Below are positions 1,993 to 51,982 of a stretch of DNA of 53,565 bases, one piece after another. The position numbers and the translations under genes are program-made. Location: the IMG/VR virus record IMGVR_UViG_3300030463_000010; one strand, written 5' to 3'. A model generated the notes under the pieces. That model was not told the origin of the DNA, made no database searches, and worked only from the letters and a program-made list of their open reading frames with translations. The stretch comes from a virus. Each line of letters begins with the position of its first letter. The first letter of the stretch is position 1.

Positions 1993-3627
1993 ATGGAGAT
2001 AAAAACACTGGTAGTGAGGGCATTTCAGAGAGATTTGTCCGACCCATCTGCGCTATCTGATGCGTTTGATTCGATCAGGTTGTTGGAGCCGGAAGATTTT
2101 TCGCTGGCACACGAGCGGAACAAGGAGGTGCGGAGGATGTCTGCAAAATTTGCCGCAGAACAAAAAAGCCTCCGCATGTTCGAGCTAAACAAGCGGAGTC
2201 TGCTGTTTGATGCCCCGTATGATTTTGATGCTCATTGCAGGTACATAGAATGGAATAGGCCGAACGATAAGAGGTTTTATATTCCAAGAAGAAAGCAATT
2301 GCTTCGTGTAGCAAAATCCCTTCAAAAGCTGGCGGACGGAGATCTGGATCTGTTGGCTATCAGTTTGCCTCCTGGAGTTGGGAAAACTACATTAGCTCTG
2401 TTTTTCTTGACTTGGCTTGCTGGACGAAGCCCGGAAAAACCGATTCTTGGAGGTTCACACTCTAACGCATTTCTTCGGGGAGTATACGATGAATGTCTGC
2501 GAATTCTTGATCCGCAGGGAGAATATTTGTGGCATGATGTGTTCCCGACGGTACAGGTAGTAAAAACCAATGCACAAGATATGATGATTGACCTTGGAAC
2601 CGATAAGAAACGAGGAAAGAGGTTCGCGACACTGGAATTTAGCTCTATTGGATCTGGAAATGCTGGTAAGGTTCGAGCAGAGAACTTGCTTTATTGTGAT
2701 GACCTTGTTGACGGCCTGGAGTCTGCTCTCTCCAAGGAACGCATGGACAAGTTGTGGAATCTGTACGCAACCGATCTTAGACAGCGAAAGATTGGAGATG
2801 CCAGAGAACTCCATATTGCAACGAGGTGGTCTGTCCATGATGTTATTGGACGATTAGAGCAGATGTATGGGGAGAATGATAGAGCAGAATTTATCGTTGT
2901 ACCGGCGCTGGACGAAAACGATGAAAGCAATTTTGACTATGGAAACCATGCCGGATTTACCACAGCGTTTTACCATGAGCAACGGGATGTTATGGATGAT
3001 GCTTCTTGGCGAGCGTTATTCATGAATCAACCAATCGAGCGTGAAGGACAGCTCTACAATGAGGATGAGCTGCGCAGGTACTTTGAACTTCCTGACGGAA
3101 AACCAGATGCAGTTCTGTTTGTGTGCGATACGAAGGACAAGGGCACTGATTACTGCGTCATGCCGATTTGTTATCAGTACGGGAATGACTTTTATTGTGA
3201 AGACGTAGTATGTGACAACAGCAATCCAGAGGTTGTAGAGGCGCGGCTGGTGTCAAAACTACTTCAGCACAAGGCTCAGATGGGCCAGTTTGAAAGTAAC
3301 AGCGCTGGTGGTAAAGTAGCAGAAAAAGTTCAAAAAGAAGTGAAGGAAGCTGGCGGAATCGCAAAAATCACAACAAAATACACAACACAGGGGAAAGAGA
3401 CAAAGATCATAGTAAATTCCCCGTGGGTAAAAGAACGGGTTTTATTTAAGGACAATTCTATCATAAAGAAAGATAAGGAGTATCGCCGGATGCTAAACTT
3501 CCTATGCGGCTATACGATGGCTGGGAAAAATAAACATGACGATGTTCCTGATGCTTGGGCAATGTTTGCTGAGTATGTCCAGCAACTAGAAGGGAACAGG
3601 GTGGAGGTGTTCCGGCGCCCATTCTAA
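1993..3627 (+). CDS. terL: terminase large subunit
   Basis: 544 aa. Walker A-like LPPGVGKTT, Walker B-like LLYCDDLVD, C-terminal nuclease-type region. GGAGG 9 nt upstream. Confidence 0.9.
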   Translation: MEIKTLVVRAFQRDLSDPSALSDAFDSIRLLEPEDFSLAHERNKEVRRMSAKFAAEQKSLRMFELNKRSLLFDAPYDFDAHCRYIEWNRPNDKRFYIPRRKQLLRVAKSLQKLADGDLDLLAISLPPGVGKTTLALFFLTWLAGRSPEKPILGGSHSNAFLRGVYDECLRILDPQGEYLWHDVFPTVQVVKTNAQDMMIDLGTDKKRGKRFATLEFSSIGSGNAGKVRAENLLYCDDLVDGLESALSKERMDKLWNLYATDLRQRKIGDARELHIATRWSVHDVIGRLEQMYGENDRAEFIVVPALDENDESNFDYGNHAGFTTAFYHEQRDVMDDASWRALFMNQPIEREGQLYNEDELRRYFELPDGKPDAVLFVCDTKDKGTDYCVMPICYQYGNDFYCEDVVCDNSNPEVVEARLVSKLLQHKAQMGQFESNSAGGKVAEKVQKEVKEAGGIAKITTKYTTQGKETKIIVNSPWVKERVLFKDNSIIKKDKEYRRMLNFLCGYTMAGKNKHDDVPDAWAMFAEYVQQLEGNRVEVFRRPF

Positions 3628-3654
3628 AAACACAAAATATTGTATATAAATATA

Positions 3655-3682
3655 TTGATTTATCTATATATTGTGGTATAAT
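3655..3682 (+). promoter_or_regulatory. strong extended -10 promoter TTGATT-16-TGgTATAAT facing the non-coding RNA locus
   Basis: Read directly in the AT-rich spacer just after the terL stop (3625-3627). Confidence 0.65.
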
Positions 3683-3788
3683 ATATATGGAATAGGGTAC
3701 TTGCACTATACAATCTTGTCTTTCACCTCCTTCACACAACATATGGGGTGGTGGCGAAAACCACTGCCCCTGCTGTGTGGAACTCTAT

Positions 3789-3866
3789 GCCCTTGTAGCT
3801 CAGTAGGTAGAGCGGCCCAGGAATATGGGTGATTGAAGCGTCGCCGGTTCGAGTCCGGCCGGGGGC
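3789..3866 (+). tRNA. tRNA-like element with a non-canonical anticodon arm (6-nt loop GGAATA, 12-nt variable region)
   Basis: Acceptor GCCCTTG/CGGGGGC, D arm GCTC-AGTAGGTA-GAGC and T arm GCCGG-TTCGAGT-CCGGC are canonical. The anticodon stem GCCCA/TGGGT leaves only 6 loop nt. Confidence 0.5.
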
Positions 3867-4277
3867 TTGGCAACCCGCACCTTTCGCGGAGCCAATTTAA
3901 GCCGCCTCCTTGTGATGCCTCCCCACAATCCGGGGACAGGTAGTAACCTGGGGCAAACCGCAGGAATGCCTTTCGAGGCTGGCCCTGCAAAGCAGACCGC
4001 TCCAAAGGCCACGGAGCTGACACCCCGGAAAGACGGGGGCATGCGGAACATAGGCACCCCAAAAACGGGGAGGTCACAGCAAGCGAAGGGCACGCTGCTC
4101 TAAGTGCTAAAGCGGGGCAGGGCCGCGATGTTCCACCAGAGGCCGGGTCGCTCCCGGATGATCTGAGCGTAGCGCAATTCCTCAGAGAGAATGACAATGC
4201 CCGCTGAAAACTGCGCCAGAGTTCCGCAATCGGGGCCGATATACGGCGTGTGACAATTAAGCGGGAAGCGCACATAT

Positions 4278-4347
4278 ACGGGTGTAGCTCAATGGAGAGC
4301 GCCGGTCTCCAAAACCGGAGGTTGGGGGAACAGAGCCTTCCACCCGT
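4278..4347 (+). tRNA. tRNA-Trp(CCA)-like element with an aberrant T arm
   Basis: Acceptor ACGGGTG/CACCCGT is perfect, with D arm GCTC-AATGGA-GAGC and anticodon arm CCGGT-CTCCAAA-ACCGG. The T arm GGGGG-AACAGAG-CCTTC lacks the TTC motif. Confidence 0.55.
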
Positions 4348-4710
4348 GCCAGTGCCCTGCATGACAATGGTCTTGGTCCATATCACCTGAAAAGGCGATG
4401 GCGGCTTGCAACGCAGCGGGGCAATGATATGCCTCTCCTCGCCGCATGAGGCGGGCGGTGGCACCACGGCCCTCCCGTTTAGGGCGAAACGATATGCAGA
4501 TTGCGACGGCCTTATGGGCGAGGCGTTAATCACTGGAACGGCTTCCAGTGTCGCAAAAGCCGAAAACCATTGAGCGGTGGCGGAAAATGTAGACGCTTAC
4601 CGAGTAAGGCCATACTGGCGCCTGCGCCAGTCTCGACTGATTAGGCCATGTTAGGTGAAAATCCTCACCCGCTCAAATATGCCGCCCCGCAGTTGCGCGA
4701 GACGGGGACG

Positions 4711-4748
4711 GGAAAAGAACAGCCTGCCTTATAAAATAAAGCAGACTG
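4711..4748 (-). terminator. intrinsic terminator of the minus-strand 65-aa gene (weaker in the plus orientation)
   Basis: On the minus strand, CAGUCUGCUUU-AUUUUAU-AAGGCAGGCUG (11 bp including 2 G-U) is followed by UUCUUUUCC. Confidence 0.6.
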
Positions 4749-4763
4749 ATCTATTGTTGTTAT

Positions 4764-4961
4764 TTAAATTTCGATTTCGAGACGTTGCGCAATCTCTTCA
4801 ACGCTATACTTTTTAGATGCTTCCTCAAGAATTAACTGGATTTTTGCGGGTTTCAAAAGTGCTTCCTTTTCTGCTTGTAGTTTTTGAATTTGCGCATCAA
4901 TAGATTTTATTTTAGCCTCCGGGGAGCGGCTTCTCTTTTTAGTCACTTTGTTTTCGTCCAT
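4764..4961 (-). CDS. small coiled-coil protein (65 aa), hypothetical
   Basis: ATG with AAAGGAGGTG upstream. MDENKVTKKRSRSPEAKIKSIDAQIQKLQAEKEALL... Has its own promoter and terminator. Confidence 0.6.
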   Translation of the reverse strand: MDENKVTKKRSRSPEAKIKSIDAQIQKLQAEKEALLKPAKIQLILEEASKKYSVEEIAQRLEIEI

Positions 4962-4986
4962 AAAATCACCTCCTTTTATGTAAATT

Positions 4987-5015
4987 ATTATATTGCACTA
5001 ATAGCATAAATACAA
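4987..5015 (-). promoter_or_regulatory. sigma70-type promoter TTGTAT-17-TATAAT for the 65-aa gene
   Basis: -35 at 5015..5010 and -10 at 4992..4987 on the minus strand. Confidence 0.5.
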
Positions 5016-5042
5016 GGGGGGCTAGATGTCGATAATGGGGGT

Positions 5043-5219
5043 ATGTCAAAAGTGAAAGTGGATGTCTACTGTCCTATCTGTGCTGCTGCTGGTATCAATC
5101 ATGGCAAAGGGCGGCTTTTGATGCAGGTGGATAGCAAAACAACGGGTATAGTTTATCCATACTGCAAGGCTTGCAAGAAAAACATCAAGATTGATTTAAA
5201 TGGCGATAAAAGCGCCTGA
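5043..5219 (+). CDS. zinc-ribbon protein (58 aa), Com/cysteine-rich-KTR-like
   Basis: MSKVKVDVYCPICAAAG...GRLLMQV...YPYCKACKKNIKIDL has two CxxC pairs. GGGGG RBS. Below the ORF-track cutoff. Confidence 0.6.
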   Translation: MSKVKVDVYCPICAAAGINHGKGRLLMQVDSKTTGIVYPYCKACKKNIKIDLNGDKSA

Positions 5220-5231
5220 GAATTATAGTTT

Positions 5232-5279
5232 AGTGCCAAGTGCCAGGCCACTAGCTGGCCTCTAAGAGTGCCAAGTGCC
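5232..5279 (+). repeat. AGTGCC heptad array, site 1: AGTGCCAAGTGCC, a 6-bp hairpin, then AGTGCCAAGTGCC
   Basis: Copies at 5232-5244 and 5267-5279 flank the hairpin AGGCCA-CTAGC-TGGCCT. Lies 63 nt upstream of the portal start. Confidence 0.85.
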
Positions 5280-5341
5280 GATCAGTTACCGAGGAACCCT
5301 CGGTAGTTGGTCGGCATTTTTGCTGTTCTGGAGGTGATAAG

Positions 5342-6808
5342 GTGACGGAAAACGATACTGTTCGGGCTATATCCGAGTGGCCGGTCAATGGGCTGACTGG
5401 GCGTAGAAAAATTTACACCGCCAAAAAGCGAGTCACCCCGGAAAATGTGGTGGATGTGCTGGGAAAGGCTCTGGCTGTGCATCGAATTAACAGGGCAGAA
5501 ATGTCCTATTTGTATGACTATTACAGAGGCAAGCAGGACATCCGCCTGAAAGACAAAATCGTTCGACCGGAGATCAACAACAAGGTGATGATTAACCGGG
5601 CGAACGAAATCGTGGTATTCAAGTCTGCTTACCTTCTGGATGGCCCAATCCGTTATGTGTCCAACGGCGGAGAAGATGATATTTCTTCTAATGTGAATAC
5701 ATTGAATGAATATATGCGAGCCGAGAGCAAAGACACTCTCGACAAAGAGCTGGCCGACTGGATGCACATCTGCGGTGTTGCGGTCCGCATGGTCCTCACT
5801 GACGAAGTCGGAGAGGAAGACGGGTCCCCGGCATCCATATATACCCTTGACCCAAGAGCGGCGTTCTGCATCTACCATAGTGGTGTGGGGCAGAAAAAGG
5901 TCGCCGGGGTGCTGGAACAGGTGGACGAGGAGGGACAGCCCTACTTCTGTGTGTACACCCCTGAATGGTATTTCGAGGTGCAGAACGGCCAGATCACAAA
6001 GCAGGAAGCCCGTACAATTCCATATATTCCGATTGTTGAGTATGTGAACAACGATGCCCGCATGGGTGCGTTTGAGCCGGTCATCCCCATCCTGAACGCA
6101 ATCAACATGATTGAGTCAAATAGATTGGACAGCATTCAGGATTTCGTCAACGCTTTTGATGTGTTCCAAAACTGCGAGCTAGAGGACGGCCAATATAAGG
6201 AACTGGCAAAGGGCGGAATGGCAATTACGATCAAGAGCGTTCAGCCCGGCATGGAGGCTAAGGTCTACCGCATTGCCTCTGAGCTGAACCAGACCAACAC
6301 ACAGACCATTGTGGACGACCTAGAGGACGCATACCTGACCATCTGCGGGATGCCGAACCGGAACGGTGGTTCATCCACCAGCGATACCGGACAGGCGGTC
6401 ATTTACCGAGACGGCTGGTCCGCCGCTGAGAGCCGGGCCAAGGACACGGAAAAGACATGGGAACGGTCGGAGCGGGAGTTCCTGCGGCTGGTGCTGTATA
6501 TCTGCCGGGAGACTGGCGATTTAGGCTTGCAGCTATCCGACATTAAGCCGGAGTTCACTCGGAAGAACCTGTCCAACATCCAGTCCAAGGCGCAAGTGCT
6601 GGCGGAAATGCTGAATAACAGCAAGATTCACCCGAAGCTGGCGTTCCAGTACAGCGGGCTATTTAGCGACCCAGAGGACGCATACAGGATCAGTATGGAA
6701 TATGCAGAAGAACAGCAACGCAAGATGGAGCGGAGTTTGAGAGATGAACTGGCGGTGGAACGGGCCAACGGGAATAATCCGCAGGACGGCGGCGGTGATG
6801 CTGAATGA
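5342..6808 (+). CDS. portal protein (SPP1 gp6-like)
   Basis: 488 aa. GTG start with GGAGGTGA RBS. Size, position and sequence are typical of SPP1-type portals. Confidence 0.85.
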   Translation: MTENDTVRAISEWPVNGLTGRRKIYTAKKRVTPENVVDVLGKALAVHRINRAEMSYLYDYYRGKQDIRLKDKIVRPEINNKVMINRANEIVVFKSAYLLDGPIRYVSNGGEDDISSNVNTLNEYMRAESKDTLDKELADWMHICGVAVRMVLTDEVGEEDGSPASIYTLDPRAAFCIYHSGVGQKKVAGVLEQVDEEGQPYFCVYTPEWYFEVQNGQITKQEARTIPYIPIVEYVNNDARMGAFEPVIPILNAINMIESNRLDSIQDFVNAFDVFQNCELEDGQYKELAKGGMAITIKSVQPGMEAKVYRIASELNQTNTQTIVDDLEDAYLTICGMPNRNGGSSTSDTGQAVIYRDGWSAAESRAKDTEKTWERSEREFLRLVLYICRETGDLGLQLSDIKPEFTRKNLSNIQSKAQVLAEMLNNSKIHPKLAFQYSGLFSDPEDAYRISMEYAEEQQRKMERSLRDELAVERANGNNPQDGGGDAE

Positions 6809-7710: not shown

Positions 7711-7766
7711 GAGAGAACGCTTAATAACCCAAAAACATAGTGAGAGAACACTTACAAAACCCAAAA
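7711..7766 (+). repeat. imperfect 25-nt direct repeat (period 31 bp) in the scaffold-gene leader
   Basis: GAGAGAACGCTTAATAACCCAAAA (7711-7735) and GAGAGAACACTTACAAAACCCAAAA (7742-7766). Confidence 0.8.
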
Positions 7767-7777
7767 GGAGAATTTAC

Positions 7778-8347
7778 ATGAAGATTTCCACCGACAGCAT
7801 CCAGGGGTTCGCTGAAATGAGCGATGCCGACAAGGTTACTGCCCTGCTGGGGCTTGATGTGCCTGACCCAGTAGACTTGAACGGCTATGTGAAGAAAGAA
7901 GTTTTCGATGCCAAGGCTACCGAGGCGGCCAACCTGTCCAAGCAGCTCAAATCCAAGATGACCGATGACGAGGCTGCAAAGGCGCAGGCTGACGCGGACC
8001 GCAAGGCGCTGGAGGAAAAGTACACTGAACTGCTGCGCAAGTCCACAATCGCCGAGCATACCGCCCGTTATATTGCCATGCCGGGTTATGACGAGAAGTT
8101 GGCCCGTGAGACAGCAGAGGCGTTGTTTGACGGCGATATGGAGCGGGTCTTTGCCAACCAGCAGAAGGCCAACGCCGCATATGAGAAGAAGCTGCGGGCT
8201 GATCTGGTAAAGCAAGACCCAAAGCCTGCTGGTGCTGGTGGTGGGAACGAGGAGAAAGACGAGGCCGTGGAGTTTGCCAAGAAGCTGGGCAAACAGCGAG
8301 CCGACGCCCTCAAAAATGCAAACGAAGGTTTGAAACACTACTTTTGA
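7778..8347 (+). CDS. capsid scaffolding protein
   Basis: 189 aa, charged and alpha-helical (KQLKSKMTDDEAAKAQADADRKALEEKYTELL). Position immediately before the decoration and capsid genes. Confidence 0.7.
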   Translation: MKISTDSIQGFAEMSDADKVTALLGLDVPDPVDLNGYVKKEVFDAKATEAANLSKQLKSKMTDDEAAKAQADADRKALEEKYTELLRKSTIAEHTARYIAMPGYDEKLARETAEALFDGDMERVFANQQKANAAYEKKLRADLVKQDPKPAGAGGGNEEKDEAVEFAKKLGKQRADALKNANEGLKHYF

Positions 8348-35241: not shown

Positions 35242-36582
35242 TCACACATTTAAGGAATATTCTATGTGCCTATCAGGGTATATTTTGATTTCTTTGACAA
35301 TAATTCTCCAAAATTCTCGTTTTTCTTCGCGGTTGAGTCCGTCGTAAGATTCTTTCCAGTTTTCGGTTAACACCCTATCAATACTCTCGAAGTCTTGCTT
35401 TTGCTCAGGGAGTGCTGCTTTCTCCAAATCACTGATTTTTGCAAGCAATGCTTCACGGTCTGTCTTTAATTCTTCTAGTGTGATGATATCATTCAAATAT
35501 AAATCCTTCAGTTTGTTTAACTTTGACTTTGCAGCAGAGATTTCCGCACGTGACCTTTTGTTGATTTCCGCATTTTTGAGAGCGGAAAAGTTGGCCTTGT
35601 ATTCGTGAAATTTGTTGGCTACTGTCGCAAGAAGATACTCTTCAATTTTCCTTTCACCAAGATTAACGCGATTTTGGCATCCATTCTGCTTTGTATAGTG
35701 TCCGTTGCAATTGTAGAACACATACGTCTGCTTTGTGTTAATACGAGCACCCATCCTGTTGCCGCACTCCGGGCAAACCACTAATCCGGAAAACAGATAG
35801 GTACGATTATTCTTTGCCTTTCGGACAACCTTCCTCCGCATAGCTTGAATTTGTTCATGATCTTCTTTAGTGATATAGGCAGGACACATTCCGTCCATAT
35901 TGTAATATTTCCCATAATATGTAGTGCTGCGCAGCATCTTATCAATAAGATGGTATCTCATTAAAACACCATATTTTTCTCTGATAAATTCGGAAGTTTT
36001 AGAAATGGAACCGGAGGCTAAATACTTCTTAAAGAAATCGTTAACAAGAGCCTCTTTGGATTCGTCTTTTTTGAATGATTTTCCTTCAATTTTATAACCA
36101 AAAGGTATATTCCCGGTAAGAGGCTCCAACCGCGCCCGCTTTCCCTCAAAAACGAATTTGATACGCTCACTGGTCCGGTCTGCTTCATCTTGGGCAACGG
36201 ACAACATGATATTTACTTTCAGCCGCCCGGATGCGGTTGTCGTCTCATAATCCTCTTGTGTCGCCTGCCAAGATACACCATATTGATCTAGGATTTCCTG
36301 AACAGCATAGTAGTTCCCCACATTTCTAAACCATCGGTCCAGTTTTATAAACAATATCAGATCAATTTTTCCAACCCTGCAATCATCCAGAAGTTTTAGG
36401 AGTGCAGGGCGTTTCTTATATGGTTTTCTGGCGGAGATGCCAGCATCTTCATAGATGCCGACAATCTTCATTCCATGGGATTTTGAAAATTGGGTCAGAC
36501 TATTTTTTTGGTCTTCCAGAGACAAGCCATGCCGGGCTTGTTCTTCTGTACTAACCCTTATATATAATGCAGCTCGTTGCAT
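35242..36582 (-). CDS. int: large serine recombinase (integrase)
   Basis: 446 aa from the ATG at 36582 (AGGAGGTGGAG RBS). AALYIRVSTEEQ..., recombinase domain, zinc ribbon CPECGNRM...YNCNGHY, coiled coil. Confidence 0.9.
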   Translation of the reverse strand: MQRAALYIRVSTEEQARHGLSLEDQKNSLTQFSKSHGMKIVGIYEDAGISARKPYKKRPALLKLLDDCRVGKIDLILFIKLDRWFRNVGNYYAVQEILDQYGVSWQATQEDYETTTASGRLKVNIMLSVAQDEADRTSERIKFVFEGKRARLEPLTGNIPFGYKIEGKSFKKDESKEALVNDFFKKYLASGSISKTSEFIREKYGVLMRYHLIDKMLRSTTYYGKYYNMDGMCPAYITKEDHEQIQAMRRKVVRKAKNNRTYLFSGLVVCPECGNRMGARINTKQTYVFYNCNGHYTKQNGCQNRVNLGERKIEEYLLATVANKFHEYKANFSALKNAEINKRSRAEISAAKSKLNKLKDLYLNDIITLEELKTDREALLAKISDLEKAALPEQKQDFESIDRVLTENWKESYDGLNREEKREFWRIIVKEIKIYPDRHIEYSLNV

Positions 36583-36824
36583 AGCTCCACCTCCTAAGAT
36601 CACGCCGCCAGGTGATTCCTGACGGCGGCTTTTCACTAGAATGAAAACCTATCGTAAAAAGTAAAATTGTGGTATAAAAATAAAGACCACTAGATATAGG
36701 TCAATACAAAATATAAATGGAAAAAATTGTGAAAATCTGCTGATTGCCTTATATTATCCTCGGTGCTATGATATTATCAAATCACTAGAACAAATGTTCT
36801 TGAACGAGGAGGGGCAACTGGAAT

Positions 36825-51120: not shown

Positions 51121-51435
51121 ATGGAGGAACGAACATTGGACTTAACAAAATATGAAATGGAAACTATCTACAACTACAATCAGGAAGATCCTCTTGCCTC
51201 CTGCTACACGATGGACCGTGCCCTGATCCGCCGCTTAGATGTACTTGCCGAAAAACACAAAGAAATTACTTTACTTAGAAGTGGTGAAGGAATGAGGGAA
51301 TATACTTTCCCCAAGAAGTGGATTAAAGTCCGCGCTCCAAAGGAACTATCGGAAGAACAGCGGGAAAACATGGCAAAGAGAGCAAGAGAGAGGTTTGGGT
51401 TTGCGAAGGAAGGTGACAACTCTGAACAAGAATGA
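51121..51435 (+). CDS. hypothetical protein (104 aa) immediately upstream of terS (the usual position of late activators)
   Basis: First ATG with plausible context in the track ORF 51001-51435. No HTH recognised. Confidence 0.5.
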   Translation: MEERTLDLTKYEMETIYNYNQEDPLASCYTMDRALIRRLDVLAEKHKEITLLRSGEGMREYTFPKKWIKVRAPKELSEEQRENMAKRARERFGFAKEGDNSEQE

Positions 51436-51442
51436 TGCGACT

Positions 51443-51982
51443 ATGGAGCAGGGGAAGGAACTCGTTAAGCGGAAGATGAAACCCCGTGGTGGGAACTCTC
51501 CTGTGATTGGAGATAACGGCGTACATACCAAACCGGGTGACAACTCCAAGATTGCCGGGTTCCTTATGGAAGTCGGAAAGTGGGGCCCTGTTGATAAGTC
51601 CGATGTTCAGGCTATGGAAAAGCGATTTTGGGACTATGTTTCACTCTGCTTTGAAAGGGATGTTCGTGTCACAAACCAGGTAGCTTACTTTGCTATGGGT
51701 ATCACCCGCGATGATGTTTACGACTGGGAAAATGGACGTTCACGCAGTCCAGAACATTCCGCCCTCATTAAAAAAGTGAAGATTTTTTGTGGTTCTTACC
51801 GTGAAATGTTAGGGGCTGATGGCAAGCTCAACCCTGTTACTCTGGTCTGGTGGCAAAAGAACTATGACGGCCTTGTGGACAAGTCCGAAGTGGTGCTCAC
51901 GCCCAACAACCCGTTAGGGACTATTGCTGACCAAAAGCAGCTTGAAGAGCGGATCGCCGGCTCTGTGGTGGTGGAGGAGTAA
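51443..51982 (+). CDS. terS: terminase small subunit
   Basis: 179 aa. ...VAYFAMGITRDDVYDWENG... (HTH-like) and NPVTLVWWQKNYDGLVDK, typical of TerS. Start is uncertain (TTG 51395 is the alternative). Confidence 0.7.
   Translation: MEQGKELVKRKMKPRGGNSPVIGDNGVHTKPGDNSKIAGFLMEVGKWGPVDKSDVQAMEKRFWDYVSLCFERDVRVTNQVAYFAMGITRDDVYDWENGRSRSPEHSALIKKVKIFCGSYREMLGADGKLNPVTLVWWQKNYDGLVDKSEVVLTPNNPLGTIADQKQLEERIAGSVVVEE

Follow-up and report, generated by a model that had tools for sequence, protein, structure and literature searches.

Among the described RNA systems that draw on the transfer RNA (tRNA) fold, phage tRNA clusters comprise co-oriented, co-transcribed units that carry an encoded CCA and enclose embedded non-tRNA RNAs, and the cluster of phage T4 also yields small stable RNAs. 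The tRNA-like domains of YrlA, a bacterial Y RNA (RF02553), and of tmRNA retain the acceptor, D and T portions of tRNA, with the anticodon region replaced. The present article deals with positions 3655-4750 of the IMG/VR virus record IMGVR_UViG_3300030463_000010, a stretch of phage DNA whose whole length of 53,565 nucleotides (nt) is referred to here as the window. This region is non-coding and strand-specific, is headed by a strong promoter, and belongs to a mosaic family of arrays, found in gut phages and prophages of Oscillospiraceae-type Clostridia, that joins a leader RNA, true tRNAs, degenerate tRNA-like units, a CCA-tailed minihelix and spacers. It may represent one transcription unit of tRNA-derived cassettes that is processed like a multimeric tRNA precursor, a proposal that we regard, on the sequence comparisons set out below, as evenly poised.

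The traits listed above for phage tRNA clusters recur in the arrays, which in relatives also contain true tRNAs. Unlike in such clusters, however, none of the units in the window is canonical, the most conserved piece is a bare acceptor-type hairpin, and the array has a conserved leader with a string like the 3' end of 16S ribosomal RNA (rRNA) and often abuts the starts of late genes. Two of the cassettes, called A and b below, replace the anticodon region as YrlA and tmRNA do, although YrlA leaves a trace of 16 bits against a threshold of 69, tmRNA is unmatched, and no search aimed at an Rsr/Ro60 partner was made. A further likeness is to the tRNA punctuation of organelles, which to our knowledge has no counterpart among phages. 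There, tRNAs or tRNA-like shapes lie at RNA or mRNA borders where RNase P and RNase Z would set the ends, and in plant mitochondria such t-elements mark the ends of mRNAs (PMC1920247; reviewed in PMC4394434). Shapes of this kind occupy comparable borders in the arrays, where a degenerate unit and a true tRNA swap in one slot; in contrast, the described system is organellar, whereas the processing of the array is predicted from its sequence. Bacterial RNase P also cuts short hairpin minihelix substrates with a 3' RCCA, among them pMini3bpUG (PMC6614837), and hairpin minihelices appear as substrates of the enzyme in a passage of PMC12710915. The minihelix of the window shares the hairpin, the single-stranded 3' RCCA (here ACCA) and a pyrimidine at position -1 (here U), but it is a natural sequence with 13 stacked positions, two mismatches and a 6-nt loop, and is a predicted substrate.

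Phage tRNA clusters and tRNA-like processing signals are therefore kinds that are known already. What is new is the reduction series that leads to a highly conserved CCA-tailed minihelix, the portable use of this element before late genes, and the leader and spacer motifs, none of which is in Rfam 15. Literature searches on phage minihelices, phage tRNA punctuation, T4 stable RNAs and int-alpA turned up no description of the array family.

The locus, its promoter and its coding status

The gene frame, promoter, base composition and long open reading frames (ORFs) given in the original prediction for this locus all stand. The ORF list, tblastn and Pfam agree that the array lies between terL (1993-3627, 544 amino acids (aa), with tblastn matches to phage large terminases), whose stop is at 3627, and the portal gene (5342-6808; Pfam SPP1_portal, E=2e-66), whose start is at 5342. 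The near-consensus promoter matches 10 of 12 positions as well as the TG of the extended -10. It is the only promoter-like site on the plus strand of 3400-5500, transcription would start near 3689-3691, and the same promoter, ATATTGTG(G/A)TATAAT, is also found at the head of arrays in about 20 related loci. The locus is conspicuously rich in G+C (GC), at about 58% in the array against 49% in the window (means of 0.579 and 0.489); the GC content is 0.55-0.63 over 3701-4700 and falls below 0.40 on both sides (0.385-0.395 at 3501-3800; 0.35-0.39 at 4701-5100). The features of the array are listed below, where numbers such as L080 denote related loci.

3655-3682, plus strand: sigma-A-type promoter with extended -10, TTGATT (3655-3660), 16 nt, TGgTATAAT (3674-3682)
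3689-3788, plus strand: leader RNA, with a CU-rich single-stranded tract and a hairpin at 3731-3781, ending in CUAU before the first cassette
3789-3867, plus strand: tRNA-like cassette A (element 1); Rfam tRNA, 43.5 bits; ARAGORN 'tRNA-???'
3868-3995, plus strand: structured spacer, little conserved (L080 alone, about 78% identity); fold z = -2.2
3996-4044, plus strand: 5' block of unit X, two hairpins, recurring in more than 50 loci
4045-4138, plus strand: tRNA-like cassette B, a 7-bp stem GGAACAU/AUGUUCC around three arms, then A-CCA (4135-4138)
4139-4277, plus strand: 3' domain of unit X, 38 sequence variants, ending in AUAU (4274-4277)
4278-4351, plus strand: tRNA-like cassette C (element 2), a Trp(CCA) cloverleaf; Rfam tRNA, 53.9 bits at 4278-4348
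4352-4426, plus strand: spacer kept in few relatives (L079/L034 95%, L029 87%)
4427-4466, plus strand: universal minihelix cassette, AUAU (4427-4430), hairpin (4431-4462) and ACCA tail (4463-4466)
4467-4569, plus strand: window-specific module with hairpin CACUGGAA-CGGC-UUCCAGUG (4531-4550), ending in AACCA; fold z = -0.6
4570-4677, plus strand: tRNA-derived cassette b, with an 8-bp closing stem UUGAGCGG/CCGCUCAA and a D-arm-like GGCG-GAAAAUGUAGA-CGCU, AUAU following; fold z = -2.2
4678-4713, plus strand: terminal hairpin (second minihelix type), UAU then GCCGCCCCG-loop-CGGGGACGG, the hairpin starting at 4681
4720-4748, strand not assigned: 13-bp hairpin separating the array from the convergent ORF 4764-4961 (minus strand), scored on the minus strand

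The long ORFs are located as listed, at 3706-4533 on the minus strand (275 aa) and 3867-4103 on the plus strand (78 aa), and the view that they are shadow frames over a non-coding region is borne out: neither has a match in Pfam, the alignments to homologous loci contain indels of 1, 2, 5 and 8 nt that break the frames, and third-position bias is absent. The plus-strand ORFs of at least 20 codons with a Shine-Dalgarno (SD)-like start number just one, of 23 codons, and its start lies within the minihelix. In the Flavonifractor phage Chenonceau (L001, ON453904), two 'hypothetical protein' coding sequences are annotated on top of the RNA array at 3787-4270. The 275-aa shadow ORF of the window is an artefact of the same kind.

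A mosaic family of arrays

The comparison set consists of 184 related loci, drawn from IMG/VR phage contigs, Oscillospiraceae-type prophages and Chenonceau. An exact 22-mer from the minihelix (window 4440-4461, its best-conserved part) occurs in at least 119 IMG/VR stretches and in six species-representative genome contigs, including those of Flavonifractor plautii, Muriventricola aceti and an Intestinimonas metagenome-assembled genome; these host genomes belong to Clostridia in or near the Oscillospiraceae. A scan that took the leader, and not the 22-mer, as its anchor gave 82 IMG/VR stretches, 57 of which were new, and the minihelix (with at most 3 substitutions) is found 300-1150 nt downstream in 37 of the 59 new loci fetched in this way. 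Against 50,697 phage records, blastn gave just short pieces, in Chenonceau and in one unannotated faecal phage contig. The matching blocks in Chenonceau are colinear, span about 310 nt and are located elsewhere in the genome, 5' of the anti-repressor gene and terS.

When the window is compared with these loci by BLAST, discrete conserved blocks appear with unconserved stretches between them. Five motifs (the leader, the unit X 3' domain, the minihelix, cassette b and the terminal hairpin) are present or absent in nearly every possible combination, and the order of the blocks varies between loci. Leader and minihelix lie from about 120 to more than 1100 nt apart, and the shortest relatives place a promoter, some 130 nt of leader and the minihelix directly before a gene. 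The 4-mers at raw ends of BLAST high-scoring pairs are noisy (ACCA and ATAT are about 3-fold enriched), and an analysis of context-switch breakpoints was used instead.

The arrays are also consistent in strand. The tRNAs that ARAGORN finds within them (Met, Thr, Gln, Pro, Arg and Trp in the relatives, with no canonical tRNA in the window) lie on the strand of the minihelix in 80 of 81 cases; AUAU stands upstream of 13 of the 31 distinct true tRNAs, which end, as the minihelix does, in an encoded CCA. In the unit X 3' domain and in the leader, many stem positions switch G·U with A-U or G-C, and since the G-U intermediates would be A-C mismatches on the opposite strand, the pairing is compatible with RNA on this strand only.

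The CCA-tailed minihelix

The minihelix is the most widely shared piece of the arrays and is more conserved than any of its flanks. In the window, it is formed by the hairpin GCCUCUCCUCGCC-GCAUGA-GGCGGGCGGUGGC with a single-stranded ACCA tail, and the consensus unit is AUA(U/C) followed by GCC(G/U)CUCCUCGCC-GCAUGA-GGCGGGCGGUGGC-ACCA, 36 nt in length from G+1. The predicted fold has 13 positions, two mismatches and a free ACCA (-19.5 kcal/mol, z = -2.2), and this layout is of the tRNA acceptor/T-arm minihelix type. The borders of its conservation sit exactly at G+1 and at the CCA: among the BLAST matches listed, all 119 end at 4466, the A of the CCA, and 67 start at 4427, and by the context-switch analysis the element has at least 36 different neighbours on its right and at least 24 on its left.

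There are 21 variants of the minihelix, three of which make up 137 occurrences. The changes fall mostly in the loop, where GCAUGA becomes GCUUGA or GCACGA, or at the mismatch positions, and the rare variants of the 5' strand stay paired, with position 4 going from U·U to G·U or A-U and position 3 from C-G to U·G; the non-Watson-Crick positions are mostly G-U on the plus strand. A diverged minihelix in L141, GCCGCUCCUAUCU-GCAUGA-GGAUAUGGACGGC, has several compensated pairs and no CCA. In L146 and L150, an internal hairpin of unit X (CCCGCCUGUCAUGGAGGCGG) is fused to the 3' half of the minihelix directly 5' of a methyltransferase gene, from which it follows that unit X holds a paralogue of the minihelix.

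The last seven paired bases of the minihelix, CGGUGGC, are identical to the 3' acceptor strand of a tRNA-Thr(UGU) from the same arrays, and in Chenonceau the slot of cassette A is taken by a tRNA-Thr derivative without an anticodon arm. From this identity and this armless form, the minihelix looks like the end state of tRNA reduction. An acceptor-type helix with a single-stranded 3' NCCA is found in the minihelix and in cassettes B and C.

The genes that lie 3' of the arrays are mostly packaging or late genes, including three kinds of terS, HNH, DNA methyltransferases, portal and anti-repressor. In at least 11 junction types, involving varied genes, the minihelix is followed 9-31 nt on by an SD sequence and start codon, and these junction types, together with the breaks in conservation, place the minihelix at the border of another RNA or mRNA. 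In the window-type phages, where the array is located between terL and portal, the position directly 5' of a zinc-ribbon ORF is held by the minihelix (L034, L038) or by a true tRNA-Met(CAU) (L014 type), so that the two are interchangeable in one slot before the same ORF. This continuity is lost in the window, where the minihelix is followed by the unique module, cassette b, the terminal hairpin, the 13-bp hairpin and the convergent ORF.

The larger tRNA-derived units and unit X

The window has five tRNA-derived units, namely 3789-3867, 4045-4138, 4278-4351, 4570-4677 and the minihelix at 4431-4466; the original prediction described the first and third of these, and overlooked the other three and the modularity of the whole region. 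What it said of its two elements is confirmed by Rfam alignment and folds. Element 1, cassette A, combines canonical acceptor, D and T arms with an extra arm and an anticodon loop of 6 nt, and element 2, cassette C, has the anticodon CCA and the T loop AACAGAG. Both 3789-3867 and 4278-4348 exceed the gathering score of 29 bits for the Rfam tRNA model (RF00005), whereas 4045-4138 and 4570-4677 are unmatched by it. With introns allowed and thresholds relaxed, ARAGORN gives inconsistent calls, and cassettes B and b go unrecognized.

Cassette A has an anticodon stem of 5 bp and a T loop of the UUCRANY type (UUCGAGU), lacks an encoded CCA, and is assigned a two-base anticodon by ARAGORN. It aligns to Ile(GAT)-like elements of relatives that have an abnormal U37, and exchanges of G-U for A-U preserve its acceptor stem. 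The related locus L002 (MT836871) carries at 5457-5546 a tRNA-like element with canonical acceptor, D and T arms and CCA, in which the anticodon region has grown to about 40 nt; this element and cassette A both contain GAUUGAA.

Cassette B combines seven of seven Watson-Crick acceptor-type pairs with an NCCA, and its minimum free energy (MFE) structure is a cloverleaf-like four-way junction (z = -2.8). In L035 and L080 its homologue has a compensated stem, GGAAUCU/AGGUUCC, together with a canonical T arm and CCA, and is named tRNA-Arg(ccg) by ARAGORN. Cassette C has a canonical anticodon loop, CUCCAAA, a discriminator G, and an encoded CCA after a perfect 7-bp stem, and it is not called by ARAGORN. 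Its aberrant T loop recurs unchanged in more than 17 loci, and its anticodon stem covaries, from CCGGU/ACCGG in the window to UCGGA/UCCGG in L024. Its junctions differ among loci; in L104-type loci, for example, it comes after the block corresponding to 4649-4677.

Cassette b occurs in 19 variants of 105-177 nt that share a common frame, the middle varying from about 30 to 100 nt. It has a T-arm-like hairpin, GUUAGG-UGAAAAU-CCUCAC or GUGAGG-UGCAAAU-CCUCAC, and its D-like stem, GGCG-GAAUAGGUAGA-CGCU, becomes GCUG/CAGU in L009 and L048 by two compensatory pairs.

Unit X (3996-4277) encloses cassette B. The hairpins of its 5' block are GCUCC-AAAGGCCAC-GGAGC (3999-4017) and CCCCGG-AAAGA-CGGGGG (about 4023-4039), the second of which is exchanged for UGUGG-AAAGA-CACUA in other variants. 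Its 3' domain is built on a helix of CCCGCU (4200-4205) with AGCGGG (4260-4265), conserved joints GAAAAC (4206-4211) and UGACAAUUA (4251-4259), and a variable hairpin closed by UGCGCC (4212-4217) with GGCGUG (4245-4250). Across its variants, 90.3% of the cells are paired, against 28-54% with slid partners, and there are 6 double-change cells against 1.1 in shuffles, with none of 500 shuffles reaching 6. A T-box-like pairing between a CACCA tail and UGGUG of unit X was considered and dropped, the UGGUG being unconserved and missing from the window.

The leader RNA and folding of the region

Within the CU-rich tract of the leader, an invariant CCUCCUUCAC at 3726-3735 overlaps CACCTCCTT, the string like the 3' end of 16S rRNA that the original prediction had placed, correctly, at 3724-3732. 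In 19 leader variants, the order is promoter, 5' hairpin, CU tract with CCUCCUUCAC, covarying hairpin, CUGUGUG-AAUAU and first cassette, and CCTCCTTCA is kept in all 19. The inner stem of the leader hairpin pairs 3745-3754 with 3761-3770, and the fold (z = -4.9) leaves the CCUCC tract unpaired. RNAalifold predicts 17 pairs over 17 variants, with many exchanges among G-U, A-U and G-C and 2 compensatory pairs. It can be speculated that a freed leader, with its 16S-3'-end-like CCUCCUU exposed, could base-pair with SD sequences.

The GC-rich hairpins and the enclosing pairings of the original prediction (3733-3740 with 3772-3779, and 4570-4577 with 4669-4676) were all located in the sequence or its folds. 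Under single-sequence folding against dinucleotide shuffles, the modules have z-scores of 0 to -2.8, compared with the leader hairpin at -4.9, and the MFE folds of the whole region, at -430.9 and -429.8 kcal/mol on the two strands, are similar and uninformative. Because single-sequence folding barely beats shuffles, the case for structure must come from comparison, that is from conservation, strand bias and covariation. Covariation, which the original prediction had proposed to look for in homologous loci, is seen in the leader, the unit X 3' domain, and the stems of cassettes B, C and b.

A processing model and its rivals

In the model that we favor, the primary transcript would be handled as a multimeric tRNA precursor, by a form of tRNA punctuation. 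RNase P would cut 5' of each tRNA-shaped unit, at the minihelix between U4430 and G4431 by prediction, and the 3' ends would be trimmed to the encoded CCA, or set by RNase Z where CCA is absent. The products would be a leader RNA of about 100 nt exposing CCUCCUUCAC, a number of small tRNA-like RNAs, and the structured spacers. In relatives, the cut at the last cassette, whether minihelix or tRNA-Met, would detach the array, and the late mRNA would then start at a defined 5' end protected by a hairpin. In the window, the convergent small gene and a putative hairpin terminator would uncouple the array from the downstream genes, so that it would yield small RNAs only. The proposal draws on the minihelix biology of RNase P and on the analogy with mitochondrial punctuation and t-elements (PMC1920247, PMC4394434), and it is consistent with the stems of the degenerate units being kept by compensatory changes (cassettes B, C and b, unit X, the leader and L141), which implies structural constraint.

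A number of points weigh against this model. Transcription, cleavage sites and stability of the products are all inferred. A naive scan for a 7-bp stem followed by NCCA over all arrays gives no excess on the plus strand (98 distinct cases against 123 on the minus strand); it was dropped as a statistic and the recurrent conserved cases alone were kept. Folding z-scores are unremarkable for most modules, and CCA is missing from cassettes A and b and from the window's terminal hairpin. The minihelix has 13 stacked positions with two mismatches where an acceptor/T minihelix has 12 bp, and its U(-1) is able to pair with A73. Being nearly invariant, it offers covariation hardly any test of its pairing, on which single variants (L141, L058, L091 and L038) are the sole informants. 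A sequence-specific partner or a DNA site would explain such constancy no less well than would a role as an RNase P handle alone. Finally, as all members come from one narrow phage population, some of the conservation reflects recent common descent.

The rivals to be weighed include several that are compatible with processing and differ in purpose only. The original prediction took the region for a large ornate RNA, either of the ROOL/GOLLD class or an undescribed tRNA-scaffolded phage RNA. That the whole kilobase forms one functional architecture of that class is very improbable. It is phage-borne, about 1.06 kb long, GC-rich, packed with helices and associated with tRNAs, and in its phage or prophage home, tRNA proximity and size it resembles GOLLD (RF01998) and ROOL (RF03087; PMC5737381). 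However, cmsearch with Rfam 15 gives two tRNA matches and no ROOL or GOLLD match; neither of these models, nor those of tmRNA, RNase P RNA, group I/II introns or T-box, is matched at the gathering score in the window or at E<=10 over 3500-5400, where scores of 16-19 bits below threshold (AaHKsRNA96, P31, P33, YrlA) were treated as noise. In 16 related loci, Rfam finds tRNAs and, after some arrays, int-alpA, with no ROOL or GOLLD. In place of a constant multi-domain core there are independent cassettes, which are dispensable one by one and occur in nearly all combinations and in differing orders over the 184 loci, in relatives of about 40 nt to more than 1 kb, and no conserved long-range pairing between modules was found. 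The alternative of an undescribed tRNA-scaffolded RNA survives in part: the locus has its own promoter and structured, tRNA-shaped modules, and the family is not in Rfam 15, but the modules are separate cassettes and not one scaffolded molecule. A DNA-level role, in which the minihelix is an imperfect 13-6-13 palindrome serving as a recombination core or packaging site at which exchange reassorts the flanks, is less credible still. The element is indeed palindromic, with constant arms and variation concentrated in the central 6 bases, and its left and right contexts are reassorted; but reassortment is equally seen at palindrome-free junctions, and the AUAU and CCA flanks and the strand are those of true tRNAs, with the non-Watson-Crick positions mostly G-U on the plus strand. 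A cos or pac site was rejected, the element being found both 5' of terS and between terL and portal.

It is likewise doubtful that the array is a decaying tRNA island, made up of pseudogenes and spacers of recent common descent that are shuffled by recombination and have no function in this phage. The window has no canonical tRNA, while tRNAs for Met, Thr, Gln, Pro, Arg and Trp are found in the arrays of relatives; cassette A traces back to an Ile-like element and cassette B to a unit that has a canonical T arm in L035, and Chenonceau has its armless tRNA-Thr; the module 4467-4569 is unique to the window and the family is limited to a narrow phage group. Yet the stems of the degenerate units keep their pairing by compensatory and wobble changes, the minihelix outconserves all flanks in at least 36 contexts and is present in 37 of the 59 new loci that only the leader was used to fetch, and the promoter is intact. 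A cis-acting leader or regulator of the late operon, working by antitermination in the style of HK022 put or by CCUCCU masking a downstream SD sequence until the leader is removed, is unlikely, if less so than decay. The shortest members consist of the promoter, a leader of about 130 nt, the minihelix, and the SD sequence and start of terS, methyltransferase or other genes; arrays head packaging and structural genes; in window-type phages the array is separated from portal by a terminator hairpin that is both strong and conserved; CCUCCUUCAC does not vary and stays unpaired; and a near-invariant minihelix would suit contact with a conserved host machine. On the other hand, the window array is severed from its downstream genes by the convergent ORF and hairpin, real tRNAs substitute for the minihelix in its slot, and many arrays have more RNA modules 3' of the minihelix. 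By analogy, the processed array might instead flood the cell with tRNA mimics, decoys that soak up or escape tRNA-targeting immunity, and we consider this a shade more doubtful than decay. The acceptor/D/T top half and CCA are conserved while the anticodon region is deleted, shortened or expanded, and the altered anticodon and T loops are nevertheless stable among loci; phage tRNAs counter tRNA-cleaving defences (PMC11555353), and a passage of a recent preprint has some immune RNases cleaving acceptor stems (bioRxiv 10.64898/2025.12.03.690598). This account is purely by analogy, and it leaves the leader and the fixed site before late genes unexplained. More speculatively, the arrays may be a mobile 'tRNA top-half' toolkit, in which the minihelix would hijack a host machine that reads acceptor ends (RNase P, the CCA-adding enzyme, a synthetase or a CCA-targeting immune toxin being candidates) and a leader small RNA would display the 16S 3' end, the two controlling the timing of late genes or disarming tRNA-directed immunity; this is somewhat unlikely, but is the least so of the readings set beside precursor-like processing.

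The 3' end of the array and neighbouring genes

The module at 4467-4569 has a homologue in none of the fetched loci (BLAST coverage 0). The terminal hairpin is present in 73 of the 184, followed by ACCA or CCCA in some. The plus-strand tail of the hairpin at 4720-4748 is moderately U-rich, and the hairpin is likely to be a two-way terminator at which, in this phage, transcription of the array stops. Beyond it, and convergent with the array, the 65-aa ORF 4764-4961 (minus strand) has a strong ribosome-binding site, AAGGAGGTGA. It has no family match and is missing from relatives in which the minihelix or tRNA-Met reads into the zinc-ribbon ORF, and it looks like a recent insertion that cuts the array off from the downstream genes.

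In three relatives the Rfam motif int-alpA (RF02996) comes straight after the terminal hairpin of the array (L001 4214-4283; L007 3402-3472, minus strand; L008 8323-8393), and by this position the known orphan motif is another cassette of the same arrays. Unlike these relatives, the window has no int-alpA match in Rfam, either at the gathering score or at E<=10. In L068, the Rfam motifs skipping-rope, gut-2 and GP20-b cluster at 7721-8182, a few kb from the array, and these phages are thus rich in orphan structured RNA motifs.

The zinc-ribbon ORF itself (5043-5219) encodes 58 aa with a CxxC...CxxC arrangement (MKIDIYCPVCAAAGI...) and is conserved right after the minihelix or tRNA-Met in relatives. 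A resemblance by eye to Com of phage Mu is unsupported by Pfam and PHROGs, and the name is not used. Between this ORF and the portal start, two copies of GTGCCAAGTGCC in 5220-5341 flank a hairpin that covaries, from AGGCCACTAGCTGGCCT in the window to TCCGGGCAATGCCTGGA in L023, L024, L032, L038, L066 and L153, and a terminator-like hairpin of 20 bp with a T run is located at 5273-5319, an arrangement that is kept in relatives. Rfam has no match for 5220-5341, which looks like an attenuator ahead of portal.

On the other side of the array, just 5' of terL, 1143-1916 encodes a 257-aa N-terminal part of a large serine recombinase (Pfam Resolvase and Recombinase; PHROG 95). A full-length serine integrase is encoded at 35242-36636 on the minus strand, and the sole terS-like ORF, 51395-51982, lies near the other end of the window. 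From the recombinase fragment beside terL and the distance to the terS-like ORF, the packaging module seems to have been split by insertion, if the genome is circularly permuted.

Significance of the arrays

The tRNA genes of phages are commonly read as helpers in codon usage and, lately, as replacements for tRNAs lost to host immunity. The arrays suggest a third use of the tRNA fold, in which pared-down shapes appear to act within a phage transcript as punctuation and as free small RNAs. Five motifs, namely the leader, unit X, cassette b and both types of minihelix, merit entries as RNA families, because gene callers read them as genes for spurious proteins. An experimental system for the array family exists in Chenonceau, which is carried as an inducible prophage by F. 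plautii YL31, a mouse-gut strain that can be cultivated (PMC10197239). If RNase P does cut the 36-nt minihelix and so marks the 5' ends of late mRNAs, then phages would be using punctuation in the style of organelles, and the element, as a compact natural processing tag, could find further use in Clostridia. If the minihelix binds instead to an enzyme or toxin that reads CCA, it would represent a new principle of RNA-based anti-defence, and the arrays, if they are indeed a toolkit of tRNA top halves, would form a new class of regulatory or anti-defence RNA of phages and not a by-product of tRNA genes.

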